64,000 nucleotides of DNA. Source: Bacillota bacterium (GTDB taxonomy: Bacteria > Bacillota > Sulfobacillia > JAIMAT01). A program made the position numbers and the translations under genes. The DNA is taken from assembly GCA_023511835.1 (NCBI GenBank), contig JAIMAT010000005.1, forward strand, positions 2,049 to 66,048. Direction: 5' to 3'. Under the pieces are notes generated by a model. It saw only the letters and a list, made by a program, of their open reading frames with translations. It had not been told where the DNA came from and searched no databases. Below, one piece after another: positions 15,433 through 23,577 of this stretch. Position 1 is the first letter of the stretch. Each line of letters begins with the position of its first letter.

Positions 15433-16833
<1,401 letters not shown>

Positions 16834-17001
16834 GACCGGTACCCCCTTCCGCTCTCTAGGATTCCTTTCGCCGGCCGGGGCCGGTTTCCCCACCGCCGCG
16901 GCAGGCGGGGGCCGCGGCGGGGCGAATGGCTCCAGTCGGGAGGAAGACCCGCCGGGCGCGGCGCGCCGCCGGCGGGAGCTCCGCCGGAGAGGGTGGCGGG
17001 C

Positions 17002-18009
17002 GTGCGCGTGGTGGTGACGGGAGGGACGGGGCTGATCGGCCGCGCCCTGGCCGGCGAGCTGGCGGCCCGGGGGGAGGAGGTGGTCCTGCTCAGCCGGCGG
17101 CCGGCCGCCGCGGCGGCCGCCGGGCTGCCGCCGGGCGTCCGCCTCCTCCCCTGGCCGGCGCTGCCGCGCGGCGAGCTGGCCCTCCTGCCGGGGCCCCGCG
17201 CCGGCGAGTCGGGGGAGTGGCGCGAGGCGCTGGAAGAGGCCGAGGCGGTCGTCCACCTGGCCGGGGAGTCCATCGCCGCCGGCCGCTGGGACGGGGCGCG
17301 CAAGGCGCGCCTCGTGGAGAGCCGGCTCCTCTCCACGCGGGCGCTGGTGGAGGCGCTGGCGGCGGCGCGGCGGAGACCCGCGGTGCTGGTCAGCGCCTCC
17401 GCGGTCGGCTACTACGGGTCGCGCGGGGAGGAGGAGCTGGCCGAGGAAGCCGGGCCCGGCGACGACTTCCTGGCGCGCCTCTGCGTCGCCTGGGAGCGCG
17501 AGGCGATGGCGGCGGAGGGGCTGGGCCTGCGCGTGGTCCGGCTGCGCACGGGCCTCGTCCTGGCCCGCGAGGGCGGAGCGCTGCCGCGCCTCCTGCTGCC
17601 TCTCCGGCTGGGCCTGGGCGGACCGCTGGGCGGCGGCCGGCAGTGGGTGCCCTGGATCCACCTGGAGGACGAGGTGGGCCTGATCCGCTGGGCGCTGGAG
17701 GAGGAGCGCCTGGCAGGGGCGCTCAACGCCGTCGCGCCGGAACCGGTGCGCGAGGCCGACCTGGCCCGGACGGCCGGCCGCCTCCTCCACCGGCCCGCCT
17801 GGCTGCCCGCCCCGGCGCCGCTCCTCCGCCTGGCACTCGGGGAGATGGCCGACGCCCTCCTCCTGGCCAGCCAGCGGGTGCTGCCTGCGCGGGCCCTGGC
17901 GCTGGGCTACCGTTTCCGCTACCCTCGCCTGGAGGGGGCTCTGGCGTCGCTCCTGGGCGGCGGAGACGGCCGCCCGCCGGCCCGGGAGCGCTACGCCGAG
18001 CCGCCCTAG
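17002..18009 (+). CDS. TIGR01777/YfcH-family NAD-dependent epimerase-like oxidoreductase
   Basis: MRVVVTGGTGLIG, HLAGESI...RW, SASAVGYYG, DFLARLC..WE, GRQW.PWIHLED. Confidence 0.9.
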   Translation: MRVVVTGGTGLIGRALAGELAARGEEVVLLSRRPAAAAAAGLPPGVRLLPWPALPRGELALLPGPRAGESGEWREALEEAEAVVHLAGESIAAGRWDGARKARLVESRLLSTRALVEALAAARRRPAVLVSASAVGYYGSRGEEELAEEAGPGDDFLARLCVAWEREAMAAEGLGLRVVRLRTGLVLAREGGALPRLLLPLRLGLGGPLGGGRQWVPWIHLEDEVGLIRWALEEERLAGALNAVAPEPVREADLARTAGRLLHRPAWLPAPAPLLRLALGEMADALLLASQRVLPARALALGYRFRYPRLEGALASLLGGGDGRPPARERYAEPP

Positions 18010-18083
18010 CGCCGCGCCCCGGGGCGGGGCAGGGGCTTCCTCGTGAGGGACGAGTCTGGAGCGCAAAGGAGCTGGCAGCCGAG

Positions 18084-19124
18084 GTGGCAGAGGAGAGGAG
18101 CCGGGCGCGCGGCCCCGAGGCCGCGCTCCTGGACGGCTACCCGCACATCCCCTGGCGGCGGGACGACGTCAACCTGCGCCGGGAGCGGAACCGCTTCGAG
18201 AGCGGCGAGATCGACGCGGCGGCCCTGGCGGCCGCCTACGACGCCACCGTCCTGCGCGTCCTGCGCGAGCAGGAGGCGGCCGGCCTCGACCCGGTGACCG
18301 ACGGCCAGGTACGCCAGGACGACCTCCTGGAGCCGCTGGTCCGCGACCTGGCCGGGCTGGCGCCGGGCGGCCTTGTGCGGTACTACGACAACAACTTCTA
18401 CTACCGGGCGCCGCGCGTCACCGGCCGCATCGCCCCGCTGGGCATGAGCCTGGCCGGGCAGACGGCCTGGCTGGTGCGGCGCACGGAGCGGCGCGTCAAG
18501 GTGGTGCTGCCCGGGCCGCTGACGGCGACGGCGCTGGTGGAGGACGAGCACTACCACGACCGCGAGCGGCTGCTGGCCGACGTGAGCCGGGCGCTCCACC
18601 TGCTGGCGGCCGCGGCGGTGGAGGCCGGCGCCGCCGTCGTCCAGCTGGACGAGCCCGAGCTGGTCCGCCCGCAGGGCGAGGAGCGCCGGCGGGCGCTGGC
18701 GGACCGGGCCGCCTGGCTGGCCGAGGCGCGCGAGGCGACGCGGCGGGTGACGGAGGGGCTGGGCGTGCGCACCCAGCTGGCCCTCTTCTTCGGCGACGCC
18801 GCCCCGCTTCTGGACGCCCTCGGCGACTGGCCGGTGGACGACGTCCTCTTCGACCTGGCCTCGGGACCGGCGGCGGCCGACCGCCTCGCCGCCGAGGGCT
18901 TCCCCCGCGGCGTCGGCCTGGGCTGCCTGGACGCCCGCCAGCCGCGCCTGGAGAGCGTGGAGGAGATCGAGCGGCTGGTGGAGCGGCTCTCGGCGCGCGT
19001 GGCGCCGGAGCGGATGACGCTGCATCCCAGCGCCAGCCTGGAGTTCCTGCCGGCGGAGAAGGCCCGCGCCAAGCTGCTCCGACTGGGCGAGGCGCTCGCG
19101 GCCATCAGGGGGGACGGGCGATGA
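18084..19124 (+). CDS. Cobalamin-independent methionine synthase family, non-catalytic N-terminal-like barrel (split MetE subunit)
   Basis: EQEAAGLDPVTDGQVRQDD, RYYDNNFYYRAP, K.VLPGPLT, VQLDEP. Lacks the HxC/E/C Zn ligands. ATGA-coupled to the next gene; start uncertain. Confidence 0.8.
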   Translation: MAEERSRARGPEAALLDGYPHIPWRRDDVNLRRERNRFESGEIDAAALAAAYDATVLRVLREQEAAGLDPVTDGQVRQDDLLEPLVRDLAGLAPGGLVRYYDNNFYYRAPRVTGRIAPLGMSLAGQTAWLVRRTERRVKVVLPGPLTATALVEDEHYHDRERLLADVSRALHLLAAAAVEAGAAVVQLDEPELVRPQGEERRRALADRAAWLAEAREATRRVTEGLGVRTQLALFFGDAAPLLDALGDWPVDDVLFDLASGPAAADRLAAEGFPRGVGLGCLDARQPRLESVEEIERLVERLSARVAPERMTLHPSASLEFLPAEKARAKLLRLGEALAAIRGDGR

Positions 19125-20158
19125 CGGGAGAGGTGCGGGAGCCGGGGCGCGCCGGCGCGGCGGGCGTCCGGAAGACGGGCATCCCCCACCGGACGCTGCG
19201 CACCACGGGGGTCGGCAGCCTGCCCAAGCCGCCGGCGCTGCTGGAGGCGCGGGAGCGGGTGCGGCGCGGCGAGCTGGAGCCGGCCGAGCTGCGCCGCCTG
19301 GAGCGCGAGGCGACGGAGGCCTGGATCCGCTTCCAGGAGGAGATCGGCATCGACGTCCCGGTCCACGGCGAGATGGAGCGGGGCGACATGGCCACCTACT
19401 TCGCCGAACTCCTGGAGGGCTTCGCCATCTCGGGCCCGGTCCGCTCCTACGGCAACCGGTACTACAGGAAGCCCATCGTCACCGGGCCGGTGCGGCGCAC
19501 GCGGCCGCTGGTGCTGGAGAGCTGGCGCGAGGCGCAGGCGTTGACCGACCGGCCCGTCAAGGCCATCCTGACCGGCCCGTATACGCTCTGCGACTGGTCC
19601 TTCAACGAGTACTACCCGGACCGTCGCAGCCTGACGCTGGCGCTGGCCGAGGCCCTCCACGAGGAGGTGCTGGATCTCCAGGCGGCCGGCGCCCAGTTCA
19701 TCCAGATCGACGAGCCGGCCATCTCCACCCGCCCGGAGGAGATCGGGCTGGCCATCGAGGCCATGGGCCGCGTGACGGAAGGGCTGAAGGCGCACACCGT
19801 CAGCCACATCTGCTACGGCCACTGGGAGGAGGTGCTGCCGGCGCTGCTCGAGCTGCCGGTGGACCAGCTCGACCTGGAGATGGCCAACGGCGGCTACGCC
19901 CTGCTCGACCTGCTGCGCCGCTACCCCTTCGAGAAGGAGATCGGCCTGGGCGTCATCGACGTCCACAGCCACCGCGTGGAGAGCGTGGAGGAGGTGAAGC
20001 GGGGCATCTACCGCGCCCTGGAGTTCCTTCCTCCCGACCGGGTCTACGTGGATCCGGACTGCGGGCTGAAGACCCGCACCGAGGAGGAGGCGAGGCGGAA
20101 GCTGGAGGTGATGGTCGAGGCCGTCCGGGAGGTGCGCCAGGAGCTGGGGCTGGCATGA
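19121..20158 (+). CDS. metE: Cobalamin-independent methionine synthase, catalytic C-terminal barrel (split MetE subunit)
   Basis: TTGVGSLPKP, DVPVHGEMERGDM, VRSYGNRYYRKP, KAILTGPYT, IQIDEPA, Zn ligands SHICY / LEM / DPDCGLK. Confidence 0.9.
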   Translation: MTGEVREPGRAGAAGVRKTGIPHRTLRTTGVGSLPKPPALLEARERVRRGELEPAELRRLEREATEAWIRFQEEIGIDVPVHGEMERGDMATYFAELLEGFAISGPVRSYGNRYYRKPIVTGPVRRTRPLVLESWREAQALTDRPVKAILTGPYTLCDWSFNEYYPDRRSLTLALAEALHEEVLDLQAAGAQFIQIDEPAISTRPEEIGLAIEAMGRVTEGLKAHTVSHICYGHWEEVLPALLELPVDQLDLEMANGGYALLDLLRRYPFEKEIGLGVIDVHSHRVESVEEVKRGIYRALEFLPPDRVYVDPDCGLKTRTEEEARRKLEVMVEAVREVRQELGLA

Positions 20159-22152
20159 AGAGCCCCTTCCTGGCCGCGCTGGAGGAGGGCCCGCTCCTGG
20201 CCGACGGCGCCGTGGGCACGCAGCTGCACGCGCGCGGCGCGCCGCTCTTCGGCTCGCTGGAGCTGCTCAACGTGCAGTCGCCGGAGCTAGTCCTGGACCT
20301 GCACCTGGACTACCTGCGCGCCGGCGCCCGCCTCCTGACCACCAACACCTTCCAGGGCCACCGGCTGGCGCTGGCCCGACACGGCCTCCAGGAGGAGGTC
20401 TGGCGGCTCAACGTGGCGGCGGTCAAGCTGGCGCGGCAGGCGCGGGAGATGGCGGGGCAGGAGGCTTTCGTAGCCGCCTCGCTGGGCCCGTGCCAGGGGG
20501 CGCTGGCGCCGCTGGGCCCGCTCCGCGAGGAGGAGGTGGAGGCCGCCTACCGCGAGCAGGTGCGGGCGCTGGTGGCGGGTGGCGCCGACCTCTTCCTGCT
20601 GGAGACCTTCTCCGACCCGCGCCAGCTGGCGCTGGCGCTCCGGGCGGTGCGCGCCGAGTCCGACCTGCCGGCGGTCGCCTTCTTCACCTTCTCCGCCGAC
20701 GGGACCACCCTCTACGGAAGTCCGGTGGAGCGGGTGGTGGAGGAGTTCCTGGAGGCGCTGGGCGGCGAGCCGCTGCCGGAGCTGATGGGCGTCAACTGCG
20801 GCGCCGGGCCGGCGCCCAGCCTGGAGAGCCTGGCGCGCCTGGAGCGGGCGCTGGGCGGCCGCCTGCCCGGGGACCGGGAGGGGCGCTGGGCGCTCTCGCC
20901 CAACGCGGGCCTGCCGGAGCGGAGCGCGGAGGGCGTCCGCTACCCCTCCCGACCGGGCTACTTCGCCGAGACGGTGGCACGCGGCCTGGAGCTGGGCGCG
21001 CGGCTGGTGGGCGGCTGCTGCGGCACGTCGCCGGAGCATGTCGCCCGGCTGGGGCTGGAGCTGGCCCGCCGGAGGCCGGCCTCCGGGGCCGGAGGGGCGG
21101 CCACGCCCGGCGGGGCCGGGCCGGCCGCGCTCGTCGCCCCCGCCCGGGCGGAGGGCGGCGGGGCGTCGCGGGCGGTGCCGGCGGGCCGGACGGAGGAGGG
21201 GGAGCCTCCCGAGACGGCGCGGCCGCCGACCGGCGAGGCGCCGGGCGGCGGGCGCTTGGCGGAACGGCTGGGGCGGGAGCTGGTGGTCAGCCTGGAGCTC
21301 GATCCGCCCCGCGGGGCGGTGGCCGACCGCTTCCTGGCGCAGGCGCGCCAGGCCCGGGAGGCGGGCGTCGACTGCGTCAACGTGGGCGACAGCCCCATGG
21401 CCCGGGTGCGCATGTCCTCGCTGGCCGCAGCCCACCTGGTCCAGCGCGAGGCGGGCGTGGAGGCCATCCTCCACTTCACCACGCGCGACCGGAACCTGAT
21501 GGGGCTGCAGGCCGACCTGCTGGGCGCGCACGCGCTGGGCGTGCGCACGGTCCTCGCCCTCACCGGCGACCCGCCCGCGCTGGGCAACTACGCCCACGCC
21601 ACGGCCGTCTACGACCTCGACTCCGTCGGGCTGATCCGGCTGCTGCGCCGGCTCAACGCCGGCGAGGACGCCGCCGGCAACCGGCTGGCGCGACCCACCG
21701 GCTTTCTGGTCGGCTGCGCCCTCAACCCGGTGGCGGAGGACCTGGAGCGGGAGCTGGAGCGCTTCCGCGCCAAGGTGGCCGAGGGCGCCCACTTCGTCAT
21801 GACGCAGCCGGTCTACGACCCGGCCGACCTGGAACGGGTGCTGGACCGCCTGGGCGGCTCGCCGCTCCCGCTGCTGGTGGGGCTGATGCCGCTGGCCAGC
21901 TACCCGCACGCGCTCTACCTGCACAACGAGGTGCCCGGCGTCCGCCTGCCCGAACCGGTGCTGCGGCGCATGGAGGAGGCGGGAGCCGAGGCGCGCCGCG
22001 CCGGGCTCGAGGTGGTGCAGGAGGTCTGGCTGGCGGTCCGTCGCTGGGTGGCGGGCGCCTACGTGGTGCCCAGCTTCCAGCGGGTGGAGGACGCGCTCTC
22101 GCTGGTCCGCTGGCTGCGCGGGCTGGAGGCGGGCGGCCGGGCGGCCGGCTGA
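20155..22152 (+). CDS. yitJ: Bifunctional homocysteine S-methyltransferase / 5,10-methylene-THF reductase (YitJ type)
   Basis: LADGAVGT, GVNCG and GGCCGT Zn cysteines, then ELDPPRG, VNVGDSPMARVRMS, HFTTRDRNLMGLQ, ALTGDP. Confidence 0.9.
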   Translation: MKSPFLAALEEGPLLADGAVGTQLHARGAPLFGSLELLNVQSPELVLDLHLDYLRAGARLLTTNTFQGHRLALARHGLQEEVWRLNVAAVKLARQAREMAGQEAFVAASLGPCQGALAPLGPLREEEVEAAYREQVRALVAGGADLFLLETFSDPRQLALALRAVRAESDLPAVAFFTFSADGTTLYGSPVERVVEEFLEALGGEPLPELMGVNCGAGPAPSLESLARLERALGGRLPGDREGRWALSPNAGLPERSAEGVRYPSRPGYFAETVARGLELGARLVGGCCGTSPEHVARLGLELARRRPASGAGGAATPGGAGPAALVAPARAEGGGASRAVPAGRTEEGEPPETARPPTGEAPGGGRLAERLGRELVVSLELDPPRGAVADRFLAQARQAREAGVDCVNVGDSPMARVRMSSLAAAHLVQREAGVEAILHFTTRDRNLMGLQADLLGAHALGVRTVLALTGDPPALGNYAHATAVYDLDSVGLIRLLRRLNAGEDAAGNRLARPTGFLVGCALNPVAEDLERELERFRAKVAEGAHFVMTQPVYDPADLERVLDRLGGSPLPLLVGLMPLASYPHALYLHNEVPGVRLPEPVLRRMEEAGAEARRAGLEVVQEVWLAVRRWVAGAYVVPSFQRVEDALSLVRWLRGLEAGGRAAG

Positions 22153-22589
22153 GCGGCCGGGAGGAGCTCCTCCAGGCGGCGCCGTAACTCCGGCGGCAGC
22201 CGCCGCGGCCGGCCGCTGCGGGCGTCGACGAAGACCTGGACCGTCCGCCCGCTCGCCACGCGGCGGCCGTCGGCCGCCTCCACCTCGTACTCCAGCGCGA
22301 AGGAGGAGCTGCGCACCTCGCCCACGCGGACGCCCACGCGCAGCTCTTCGCCGAAGCGCGCCGGGCTCCGGTAGAGGCAGGAGGCCTCGGCCAGCACCAT
22401 GGGCGGCAGCGGTTCGCCGTCGGCCGCACGCCCGGCCAGCGCCTCCGGGGTCACGCCCAGGACGCGCTCCAGCCAGAGCGTGCGCGCCTCCTCGAAGTAG
22501 CTCAGGTAGACCGCGTTGTTGACGTGGCCGAGCAGGTCGCAGTCGCGCCAGGCGACGCGGCGCGTGGCCAGGAAGTCGTACCCCTCCAG
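22059..22589 (-). CDS. Acyl-CoA thioesterase (YbgC/FadM hot-dog family), predicted CTG start
   Basis: The conserved RVAWRDCDLLGHVNNAVYLSYFEEAR lies upstream of the first ATG/GTG/TTG. CTG at 22589 follows GGAGGGAGG. Also contains YRSPARFGEEL. Confidence 0.85.
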   Translation of the reverse strand: MEGYDFLATRRVAWRDCDLLGHVNNAVYLSYFEEARTLWLERVLGVTPEALAGRAADGEPLPPMVLAEASCLYRSPARFGEELRVGVRVGEVRSSSFALEYEVEAADGRRVASGRTVQVFVDARSGRPRRLPPELRRRLEELLPAAQPAARPPASSPRSQRTSESASSTRWKLGTT

Positions 22590-22608
22590 GCGTCCTCCCT
22601 CCCCGCGG

Positions 22609-23577
22609 TCAGCCGTTCTGGGCGCCGCCTGCCTGGCGCGGCGGCCGCAGCTCCACCGTCGGCCGGTGGAGGACCATGGCGCCGGCGGGCACGCTCTCGG
22701 TCACCCAGCAGTTGCCGCCGATGACCGCGCCGCGCCCGACGACGGTCTCGCCGCCCAGGATGGTGGCGCCCGAGTAGACCACCACGTCGTCCTCCAGCGT
22801 GGGGTGACGCTTCTGGTTGCGGATGAGCGCCCCGCTCTCGTCCTTGGGGAAGCTGAGGGCGCCGATGGTGACGCCCTGGTAGAGCTTCACCCGGTCGCCG
22901 ATGACCGCCGTCTCGCCGATGACCACGCCGGTGCCGTGGTCGATGAAGAAGCTCCGCCCGATCCGCGCGCCCGGGTGGATGTCGATGCCCGTCACGCTGT
23001 GGGCGTACTCGGTCATCATGCGCGGGATGAGCGGCACGCCGCGGAGCCAGAGCTCGTGGGCCAGGCGGTAGACGAGGACGGCGAAGAAGCCGGGGTAGGC
23101 GAGCAGGATCTCGTCCAGGCTCTTGGCCGCCGGGTCGCCGTCGAAGGCCGCCTGCACGTCGTCGCAGAGCAGGTCGCGGATGCGCGGCAGCTCGGCCAGG
23201 AAGGCGGCGGCCACCGACTGCGCCCAGCTCAGCTGCGGGCAGAGCGAGGCCGAGGTGTCGCAGGCGTGCGCCCGCGCCGAATGGATCTCGTCGGCCAGGT
23301 CCCAGAAGATGTCGCCCAGCCGCTCGTTGAGGGCCGTCAGGTCGAGGCGGACCGCCTGGCGCCCGCTGTAGTGGCCGGGGAAGAGCACCCGGCGCAGCTT
23401 GCCGACCAGGCGGATGACGCGCTCGTAGTCGGGGTAGCGGGGAGCCACCGGCTCGCGCAGGTTGCCCTGCTGCTGCGCCGCGTGCAGGCGCTCGGCCGCC
23501 TGCAGCACGCGCCGCATGGCGCCTCCCAGCTCGTCGGACGCGGTGCGCCCGTCCTCCAGCTCGTGGGCCAAGGCCAT
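22609..23577 (-). CDS. cysE: Serine O-acetyltransferase (long N-terminal form)
   Basis: DVQAAFDGDPAA, YPGF.A...YRLAH, IDIHPGARIG, IDHGTGVVIGET, RHPTL. Confidence 0.93.
   Translation of the reverse strand: MALAHELEDGRTASDELGGAMRRVLQAAERLHAAQQQGNLREPVAPRYPDYERVIRLVGKLRRVLFPGHYSGRQAVRLDLTALNERLGDIFWDLADEIHSARAHACDTSASLCPQLSWAQSVAAAFLAELPRIRDLLCDDVQAAFDGDPAAKSLDEILLAYPGFFAVLVYRLAHELWLRGVPLIPRMMTEYAHSVTGIDIHPGARIGRSFFIDHGTGVVIGETAVIGDRVKLYQGVTIGALSFPKDESGALIRNQKRHPTLEDDVVVYSGATILGGETVVGRGAVIGGNCWVTESVPAGAMVLHRPTVELRPPRQAGGAQNG

Follow-up and report, generated by a model that had tools for sequence, protein, structure and literature searches.

A three-gene methionine-synthesis operon in an uncultured Bacillota bacterium, very probably built around a split cobalamin-independent methionine synthase

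The window considered here, i.e., the whole stretch of 64,000 nucleotides of contig JAIMAT010000005.1 that was analysed, originates from an uncultured, very GC-rich Bacillota bacterium represented by an assembly of 2.36 Mb in 156 contigs (96% complete). Its forward strand harbors three consecutive genes (genes 1, 2 and 3; Table 1), which very probably form an operon for methionine synthesis with a split cobalamin-independent methionine synthase (split MetE) at its core. The coordinates proposed for all three genes in an earlier note on this DNA were confirmed, and so was its description of two tandem MetE-type barrels of about 345 amino acids (346 and 345 aa) coupled by ATGA and followed directly by a fusion of homocysteine S-methyltransferase (HMT) with methylenetetrahydrofolate reductase (MTHFR). 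The junctions of gene 1 with gene 2 (19121–19124) and of gene 2 with gene 3 both read ATGA; hence, neighboring genes overlap and are coupled, in contrast to the word “fused” in the title of the note. A stop codon separates gene 1 from gene 2, yielding two polypeptides. As the start of gene 1, GTG 18084 is the sole in-frame ATG, GTG or TTG codon seen between the stop codon of the preceding epimerase gene and the conserved part of the barrel; the sequence AAGGAG lies 13 nt 5' of it, at a rather large spacing.

Table 1. The genes of the operon and the features surrounding it (positions within the window)
Feature	Position	Strand	Remarks
Gene 1	GTG 18084..TGA 19124	+	346 aa; predicted non-catalytic subunit of split MetE
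Gene 2	ATG 19121..TGA 20158	+	345 aa; predicted catalytic subunit of split MetE
Gene 3	ATG 20155..22152	+	665 aa; YitJ-type homocysteine methyltransferase–MTHFR fusion
Short-chain dehydrogenase/reductase (SDR) gene, NAD-dependent epimerase/DUF1731	17002..18009	+	Pfam Epimerase 77 bits, DUF1731 73 bits
Intergenic gap, 74 nt	18010..18083	+	Between the epimerase gene and gene 1
Class II fumarase gene	15433–16796	-	Divergent from the epimerase gene
4HBT-type thioesterase gene	22059–22454	-	Convergent with the operon
Serine-acetyltransferase-like gene	22609–23577	-	SATase_N and hexapeptide repeats; convergent with the operon

The product of gene 2 matches the Pfam domain Meth_synt_2 with 266.6 bits and passes the NCBIfam equivalog model NF003317 (PRK04326 “methionine synthase”, an archaeal-type single barrel) with 415.6 bits vs. 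the cut-off of 406 bits, scoring 293.9 bits against the fused-MetE model TIGR01371 (cut-off 929.95). The complete set of zinc ligands, His, Cys, Glu and Cys (HCEC), is present as H229, C231, E253 and C314, whereas the aligned residues of gene 1 are A, F, D and A, so the zinc ligands are confined to the second barrel, as had been proposed. The predicted homocysteine contacts, compiled according to a published residue list (PMC7857596), are represented by S33, E84 and D197; here, the position of Glu484 of the E. coli enzyme corresponds to Glu84, located within the motif HGE. Judging by the zinc ligands and the Ser/Glu/Asp contacts, the second subunit is likely the catalytic one, in agreement with the initial assignment. 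It shares 38% identity with the C barrel of one fused MetE, and its hairpin, together with the DM(A) motif, falls opposite the folate hairpin region of the fused enzyme in the alignment. In fused MetE, the folate is held mainly by the long hairpin in the C barrel, and the N barrel mostly completes the cleft (PMC539065); the label “folate-binding subunit” for the non-catalytic barrel is to be taken loosely.

Gene 1 is 33% identical to gene 2 over the full length. It is recognized by two Pfam models, Meth_synt_2 (95.8 bits) and Meth_synt_1 (50.8 bits, cut-off 27), and obtains 62.1 bits with TIGR01371. The fold of its product is, according to an AlphaFold2 model with a pLDDT of 92.4, a MetE-type (beta-alpha)8 barrel. 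Comparison of a profile of the gene-1 family (27 members) with one built from 16 full-length fused MetEs gave the best alignment with the N barrel of the latter (columns 7–375 of 778, E 3.7e-43). The consensus of the family displays TYFG, Asp and PSCGLE opposite the HxCY, Glu and PDCGL of the C barrel, that is, Tyr replaces the first Cys, Asp replaces Glu, and the last Cys is retained. The same changes are documented for the N barrel of fused MetE by Pejchal and Ludwig: the equivalent of Cys620 is turned into Tyr, the equivalent of Cys704 is kept in most sequences, and Asp253 is one of the listed disabling substitutions (PMC539065). In the present comparison, this Asp253 aligns with the zinc-ligand Glu. 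A one-residue insertion (DNNxYYR vs. GNR-YYR) is common to gene 1 and the N-type subunits of a Sulfolobales genome and of a metagenome-assembled genome (MAG) of Euryarchaeota; another insertion, of about six residues after YPK, occurs in gene 1, in the bacterial subunits and in that of the Euryarchaeota MAG, whereas the Sulfolobales subunit lacks it. It is concluded that gene 1 corresponds to the N barrel of fused MetE and is not a private duplicate of gene 2.

Two peculiarities of gene 1 mark the genus of the source organism. Among the aligned homologs, only members of this genus possess the Arg/Glu-rich insertion of 12 residues at residues ~205–216. The vestigial Cys, which most members of the gene-1 family and the fused N barrels retain, has been lost in this genus at residues 316–318 (PSASLE vs. 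PSCGLE).

The third gene encodes a protein with the Pfam domains S-methyl_trans (215 bits) and MTHFR (106 bits), and its score with NCBIfam NF006396 (PRK08645, bifunctional homocysteine S-methyltransferase/MTHFR) is 606.6 bits at a cut-off of 453. A homocysteine S-methyltransferase domain of the Zn(Cys)3 type makes up its N-terminal half, and the NCG and GGCCGT cysteines of this domain align with those of the homocysteine domains of MetH; the C-terminal half is the MTHFR domain. The same fusion of HMT and MTHFR is known as YitJ of B. subtilis, a member of the S-box regulon. There, yitJ possesses a SAM-I leader of its own and exists beside a fused MetE, whereas here the gene is the third one of a split-MetE operon and has no SAM-I leader. 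The methyltransferase half of the B. subtilis protein was described to methylate homocysteine at the expense of S-adenosylmethionine (SAM), with a preference for the (R,S) isomer (PMC6302742). Such a reaction represents salvage or repair and not net synthesis, hence the former designation of gene 3 as a “second methionine route” is not supported (PMC6302742). The proposal that its MTHFR half supplies 5-methyl-tetrahydrofolate (methyl-THF) fared better and is most likely right, as this is the sole MTHFR domain found in the genome.

The genome as a whole contains two matches to Meth_synt_2, both of them in the operon, as well as a single match to MTHFR and a single match to S-methyl_trans, both in gene 3. 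MetH was not found in the genome, where, apart from two faint B12-binding domains elsewhere, the MetH model recognizes nothing but the N-terminal domain of gene 3. The pair of genes 1 and 2 is, therefore, the sole methionine synthase candidate found in this genome. Since the only MTHFR found resides in gene 3 and no other methionine synthase was found, the methyl-THF formed by gene 3 would be consumed by the pair.

Collectively, these features suggest the following mechanism. The product of gene 2 would bind zinc and homocysteine. The product of gene 1, a putatively catalytically dead paralogous barrel, would pair with it face to face, as the two barrels do in fused MetE. The formation of this heterodimer would close the cleft, and the methyl group of methyl-THF could pass directly to the zinc-activated thiol of homocysteine. 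The methyl donor would be made by the MTHFR half of gene 3. The methyltransferase half of the latter most likely re-methylates homocysteine from SAM or S-methylmethionine, i.e., serves salvage or repair. The translation of the three genes would be coupled by the ATGA overlaps.

Split MetE as such was defined by Price, Deutschbauer and Arkin in 2021 from PF1268/PF1269 of P. furiosus and from P. fumarii, was reported mainly for Halobacteria and Thermoprotei, and was predicted to employ methyl-pterin donors (PMC7857596). These authors cited a complex of P. furiosus PF1268/PF1269 and already reported one bacterial case, the adjacent pair of Sulfobacillus sp. hq2 (PMC7857596). Accordingly, a claim of novelty for the arrangement would not hold: split MetE, including the Sulfobacillus sp. 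hq2 pair, was described in 2021 (PMC7857596). Its identification as a bacterial split MetE is well founded, and the pair from the window shares with the known systems two adjacent genes for about 330–345 aa, the non-catalytic barrel coming first (ATGA overlap at 19121–19124) and the zinc-bearing one second. It also shares the status of the sole methionine synthase found in the genome, with methyl-THF or another pterin as the predicted donor. The catalytic component is described as having at most 400 aa together with the HCEC ligands and the Ser/Glu/Asp contacts, all of which were found in gene 2 (345 aa). Its membership in the PF1269/PRK04326 group, set in the paper at 200 bits or more to PF1269, was judged here from the NF003317 score as a proxy. 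For the second component, a length of at most 400 aa and a Meth_synt_1 score above the cut-off are expected, and gene 1 displays both (346 aa, 50.8 vs. 27 bits). The differences include the bacterial nature of the present host, the translational coupling of the pair to a YitJ-type MTHFR fusion, and, within the present genus, the lack of the vestigial Cys and the presence of its own 12-residue insertion in gene 1.

Fused MetE (TIGR01371; 1XDJ, 1U1J, 3PPF) resembles the pair in having two kinds of barrels, the HCEC zinc site and the homocysteine contacts, and in its disabled non-catalytic site (Tyr/Phe, Asp and, in the gene-1 family, the retained Cys). It is, however, a single polypeptide of at least ~676 aa comprising both barrels, whereas here there are two polypeptides lacking the 35-residue linker. 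The beta4-alpha4 insert of fused MetE is missing from gene 2, and the beta8-alpha8 insert (~16 residues) is missing from the gene-1 family. Both inserts enlarge the interface between the barrels in the fused enzyme (PMC539065).

The operon leader in the present genus differs from that in its Sulfobacillus-like relatives. Six Sulfobacillus-like loci carry a SAM-I riboswitch (RF00162, 84–93 bits) upstream of the operon, and its presence there assigns the operon to the methionine regulon; at the two such loci where the homolog of gene 1 was mapped, the aptamer is located just before it. No SAM-I aptamer was found at two same-genus loci or at a locus from Limnochordales. Likewise, the operon from the window does not belong to the S-box regulon as defined by the RF00162 aptamer in the leader: no Rfam family reached the gathering score near the operon, and no SAM or T-box match was obtained in 16500–18400 even at E<=10. 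The absence of a SAM riboswitch reported previously was thereby corroborated with Rfam searches, and the opinion that this absence is unusual gained weight from the six Sulfobacillus-like relatives carrying SAM-I before the same operon. A T-box or another leader within the 74-nt gap was considered and rejected. The gap yields no Rfam match, and its folding is not better than that of shuffled sequence (z = +0.94). The only SAM-I riboswitch of the genome (75 bits; L100:1501–1640 on the minus strand, corresponding to 21064–21203 of contig C84) precedes metY, a gene for O-acetylhomoserine sulfhydrylase/homocysteine synthase (L100:103–1410, minus strand; TIGR01326, 679 bits). In this genome, SAM control is kept at the formation of homocysteine and not at its methylation. 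The best reading of the comparison of these loci is that the leader has been lost in this genus.

Several observations weigh against the interpretation of the operon as a split-MetE system. A SAM riboswitch does not precede the operon in this genus, and both components of split MetE are still listed as “predicted” in GapMind 2026 (PMC13759103). The others concern gene 1. Its Meth_synt_2 score exceeds its Meth_synt_1 score (95.8 vs. 50.8 bits), so it does not pass the partner filter of Price et al. (Meth_synt_1 > Meth_synt_2), the only family feature on which it departs; according to the same authors, true partners such as AMET1_0515 escape this filter (PMC7857596). A structure search does not separate the N from the C barrel, since the model of gene 1 matches both MetE barrels equally well (Z 34–36, a tie), with a root-mean-square deviation of 2.1–2.4 A to N barrels vs. 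2.6–3.0 A to C barrels. Finally, a plain phmmer search against the sequences of the PDB aligns gene 1 to the C barrel of the solved MetEs. This last result is not taken as evidence against the orthology of gene 1 to the N barrel, because the profile–profile alignment, the shared substitutions and the indels point to the N barrel.

The order of the genes is conserved across many bacteria. The closest gene-1 proteins (80–87% identity) come from two same-genus MAGs labelled “Bacillota bacterium”, in which the epimerase gene and genes 1, 2 and 3 are arranged as in the window; two genomes of a sister family of the same class feature genes 1, 2 and 3 in this order. Within the phylum, the operon is rare and patchy, gene-1-type matches being detected in three of the 301 sampled genomes (E<=1e-30). 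A search with an alignment of ten gene-2 homologs recovered, as the best 80 loci among species-representative genomes, proteins with 55–66% identity, 79 of them bacterial and one labelled archaeal. These loci bear at least 12 bacterial phylum-level labels, and the names encountered include Limnochordales, Sulfobacillus, Dehalococcoidia, Chloroflexia, Thermomicrobiales, Zixibacteria, Ignavibacteria, Omnitrophota, Eisenbacteria, Acidobacteriota, Planctomycetia, Actinomycetota and Dormibacterota. All ten sampled bacterial genomes with a gene-2-type gene (nine phylum-level labels) also contain a gene-1-type gene, which is located directly upstream in eight of them. Leaving out one adjacent case flagged as unpublished (G049, Dormibacterota), the pairing is 9/9, with seven adjacent. 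The same N-then-C pairing is present at two archaeal loci.

The association with the YitJ-type gene recurs as well. It follows the pair directly in seven Bacillota genomes (the one studied here, two of the same genus, two of the sister family, one Sulfobacillus MAG and one Limnochordales MAG). In an Ignavibacteria MAG it lies 470 nt downstream, and in Zixibacteria RBG-1 it is found within 4 kb of the pair. In the remaining sampled genomes, the YitJ-type gene was either not found or located away from the pair, elsewhere in the genome or on other contigs. The YitJ-type match contains a single stop codon at locus L021 (Ignavibacteria) and in the genome of locus L023 (Dehalococcoidia), where the methyltransferase and MTHFR halves may be separate adjacent genes and not a fusion.

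In view of the literature describing split MetE mainly from archaea (PMC7857596), a recent and direct acquisition of the pair by this lineage from archaea has to be considered, a possible acquisition from archaea having been raised in the earlier note. The rarity of the pair in the phylum makes its horizontal arrival plausible, and the archaeal MAG Euryarchaeota RBG_16_68_13 holds a pair 54% identical to gene 2 and 35% identical to gene 1. Nevertheless, this scenario is unlikely. The nearest catalytic homologs are the bacterial ones described above, whereas the catalytic subunit of a Sulfolobales genome shares only 43–44% identity with gene 2, and the partner subunit 25% with gene 1. The catalytic subunit of RBG_16_68_13 is itself closer to the bacterial group (49–59% identity) than to Sulfolobales (40%), which hints at an exchange between the domains or at a mis-binned contig; a locus labelled Nanoarchaeota (L034) was left out of the archaeal comparison, since its given range yielded no clean translation. 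In addition, the G+C content is uniform over the operon and its flanks, about 72–80%. Judging by the similarity values, the genes from the window sit within a large, mainly bacterial group. As the bacterial homologs are nearer than the archaeal ones, any exchange between the domains must be old; such an exchange is probable, but a recent one into this lineage is not. In the RBG_16_68_13 pair (MGWB01000036.1; L103:4001–5943), the genes also overlap by 4 nt.

Another explanation would regard gene 2 as a folate-independent core synthase of the Mes type, fed by a corrinoid protein or another donor, with gene 1 as an accessory paralogue performing a different job. Single-barrel MetE homologs with non-folate donors, MesA-D, do exist, and MesA is ~38% identical to the catalytic subunit of a split MetE (PMC7857596). 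Like gene 2, they consist of one catalytic barrel of the MetE type, ~340 aa long and provided with a zinc site, and gene 2 does match the corresponding model, PRK00957, with 174.6 bits. This score, however, is under the cut-off of 258, while the cut-off of PRK04326 is passed. The position of Glu484 is occupied by Gln in MesA and MesC and by Glu in MetE (PMC7857596), and gene 2 is MetE-like in this respect; moreover, MesA and MesC belong to methanogen or Wood–Ljungdahl hosts. MesA-D lack a partner barrel and depend on corrinoid or other donors, whereas the present operon encodes such a barrel along with an MTHFR. Many phyla retain the partner barrel beside the catalytic gene, and the operon holds the only MTHFR found in a genome in which no other methionine synthase using methyl-THF was found. 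Taken together, this makes a Mes-type function very unlikely. That gene 1 is a functionless, decaying duplicate of gene 2, as the loss of each of the four zinc ligands, among them the vestigial Cys kept by most family members, might suggest, is scarcely credible for a full-length open frame conserved in the two same-genus genomes, confidently modelled, having equally placed orthologs in archaea and in at least ten phylum-level groups of bacteria, and belonging to a family with 17 columns invariant across its 27 members.

Returning to the split MetE, one may speculate about the origin of the two-gene form. The pair could represent a surviving pre-fusion stage of MetE evolution, and not a broken MetE, spread over at least a dozen mostly uncultured bacterial phyla and not mainly archaea, with the HMT–MTHFR fusion hard-wired to it in several lineages. 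This scenario is possible but doubtful. It is suggested by the disabled, N-barrel-like zinc site of gene 1 coexisting with 33% identity to its partner (the gene-1 family shares 19% with the fused N barrels), and by the lack of the interface-enlarging inserts in both subunits. If it were true, the linkage to HMT–MTHFR could mean a three-protein assembly channelling methyl-THF.

Since split MetE is still a prediction, any tractable example of it is helpful. A bacterial pair found beside an ordinary MTHFR of the tetrahydrofolate type should work with E. coli folates and may suit a first complementation or enzyme test better than the archaeal prototypes, whose pterins may be different ones. The survey suggests that the “primarily archaeal” picture understates the occurrence of the two-gene form in uncultured bacteria, and the annotation filters demanding Meth_synt_1 > Meth_synt_2 miss the partner subunit. 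What is added to the literature is modest. It comprises the wide occurrence of the two-gene form among uncultured bacteria and the repeated linkage of this form to a YitJ-type MTHFR fusion, the disabling substitutions of the partner barrel shared with the fused N barrel in the absence of the fused-type interface inserts, and the lineage-specific loss of the S-box leader. An arrangement known since 2021 and common in uncultured bacteria is real but otherwise ordinary biosynthetic housekeeping.

As to the surroundings of the operon, the start of the epimerase gene (GTG 17002) was read from the sequence. This gene may be co-transcribed with the operon; a functional link between them was rejected, as the epimerase gene is found upstream of the operon only within this genus (the two same-genus genomes). 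A terminator after the epimerase gene was likewise considered and rejected, none being detected by the scan. The promoter and terminator scan, with the promoters sought being of the sigma-70-like type, revealed no promoter-like or terminator-like site in 16700–22600. The divergent starts of the fumarase and epimerase genes are separated by a region of ~205 nt. On the other side, the unit is delimited by the two convergent genes, of which the serine-acetyltransferase-like one represents a cysteine-pathway gene adjoining the methionine operon. Owing to the high G+C content, many long open reading frames in this part of the window are spurious, and the list of open reading frames exaggerates the lengths of genes, e.g., 15433–18066 on the minus strand and 16926–19124 on the plus strand, in DNA with 75% GC.

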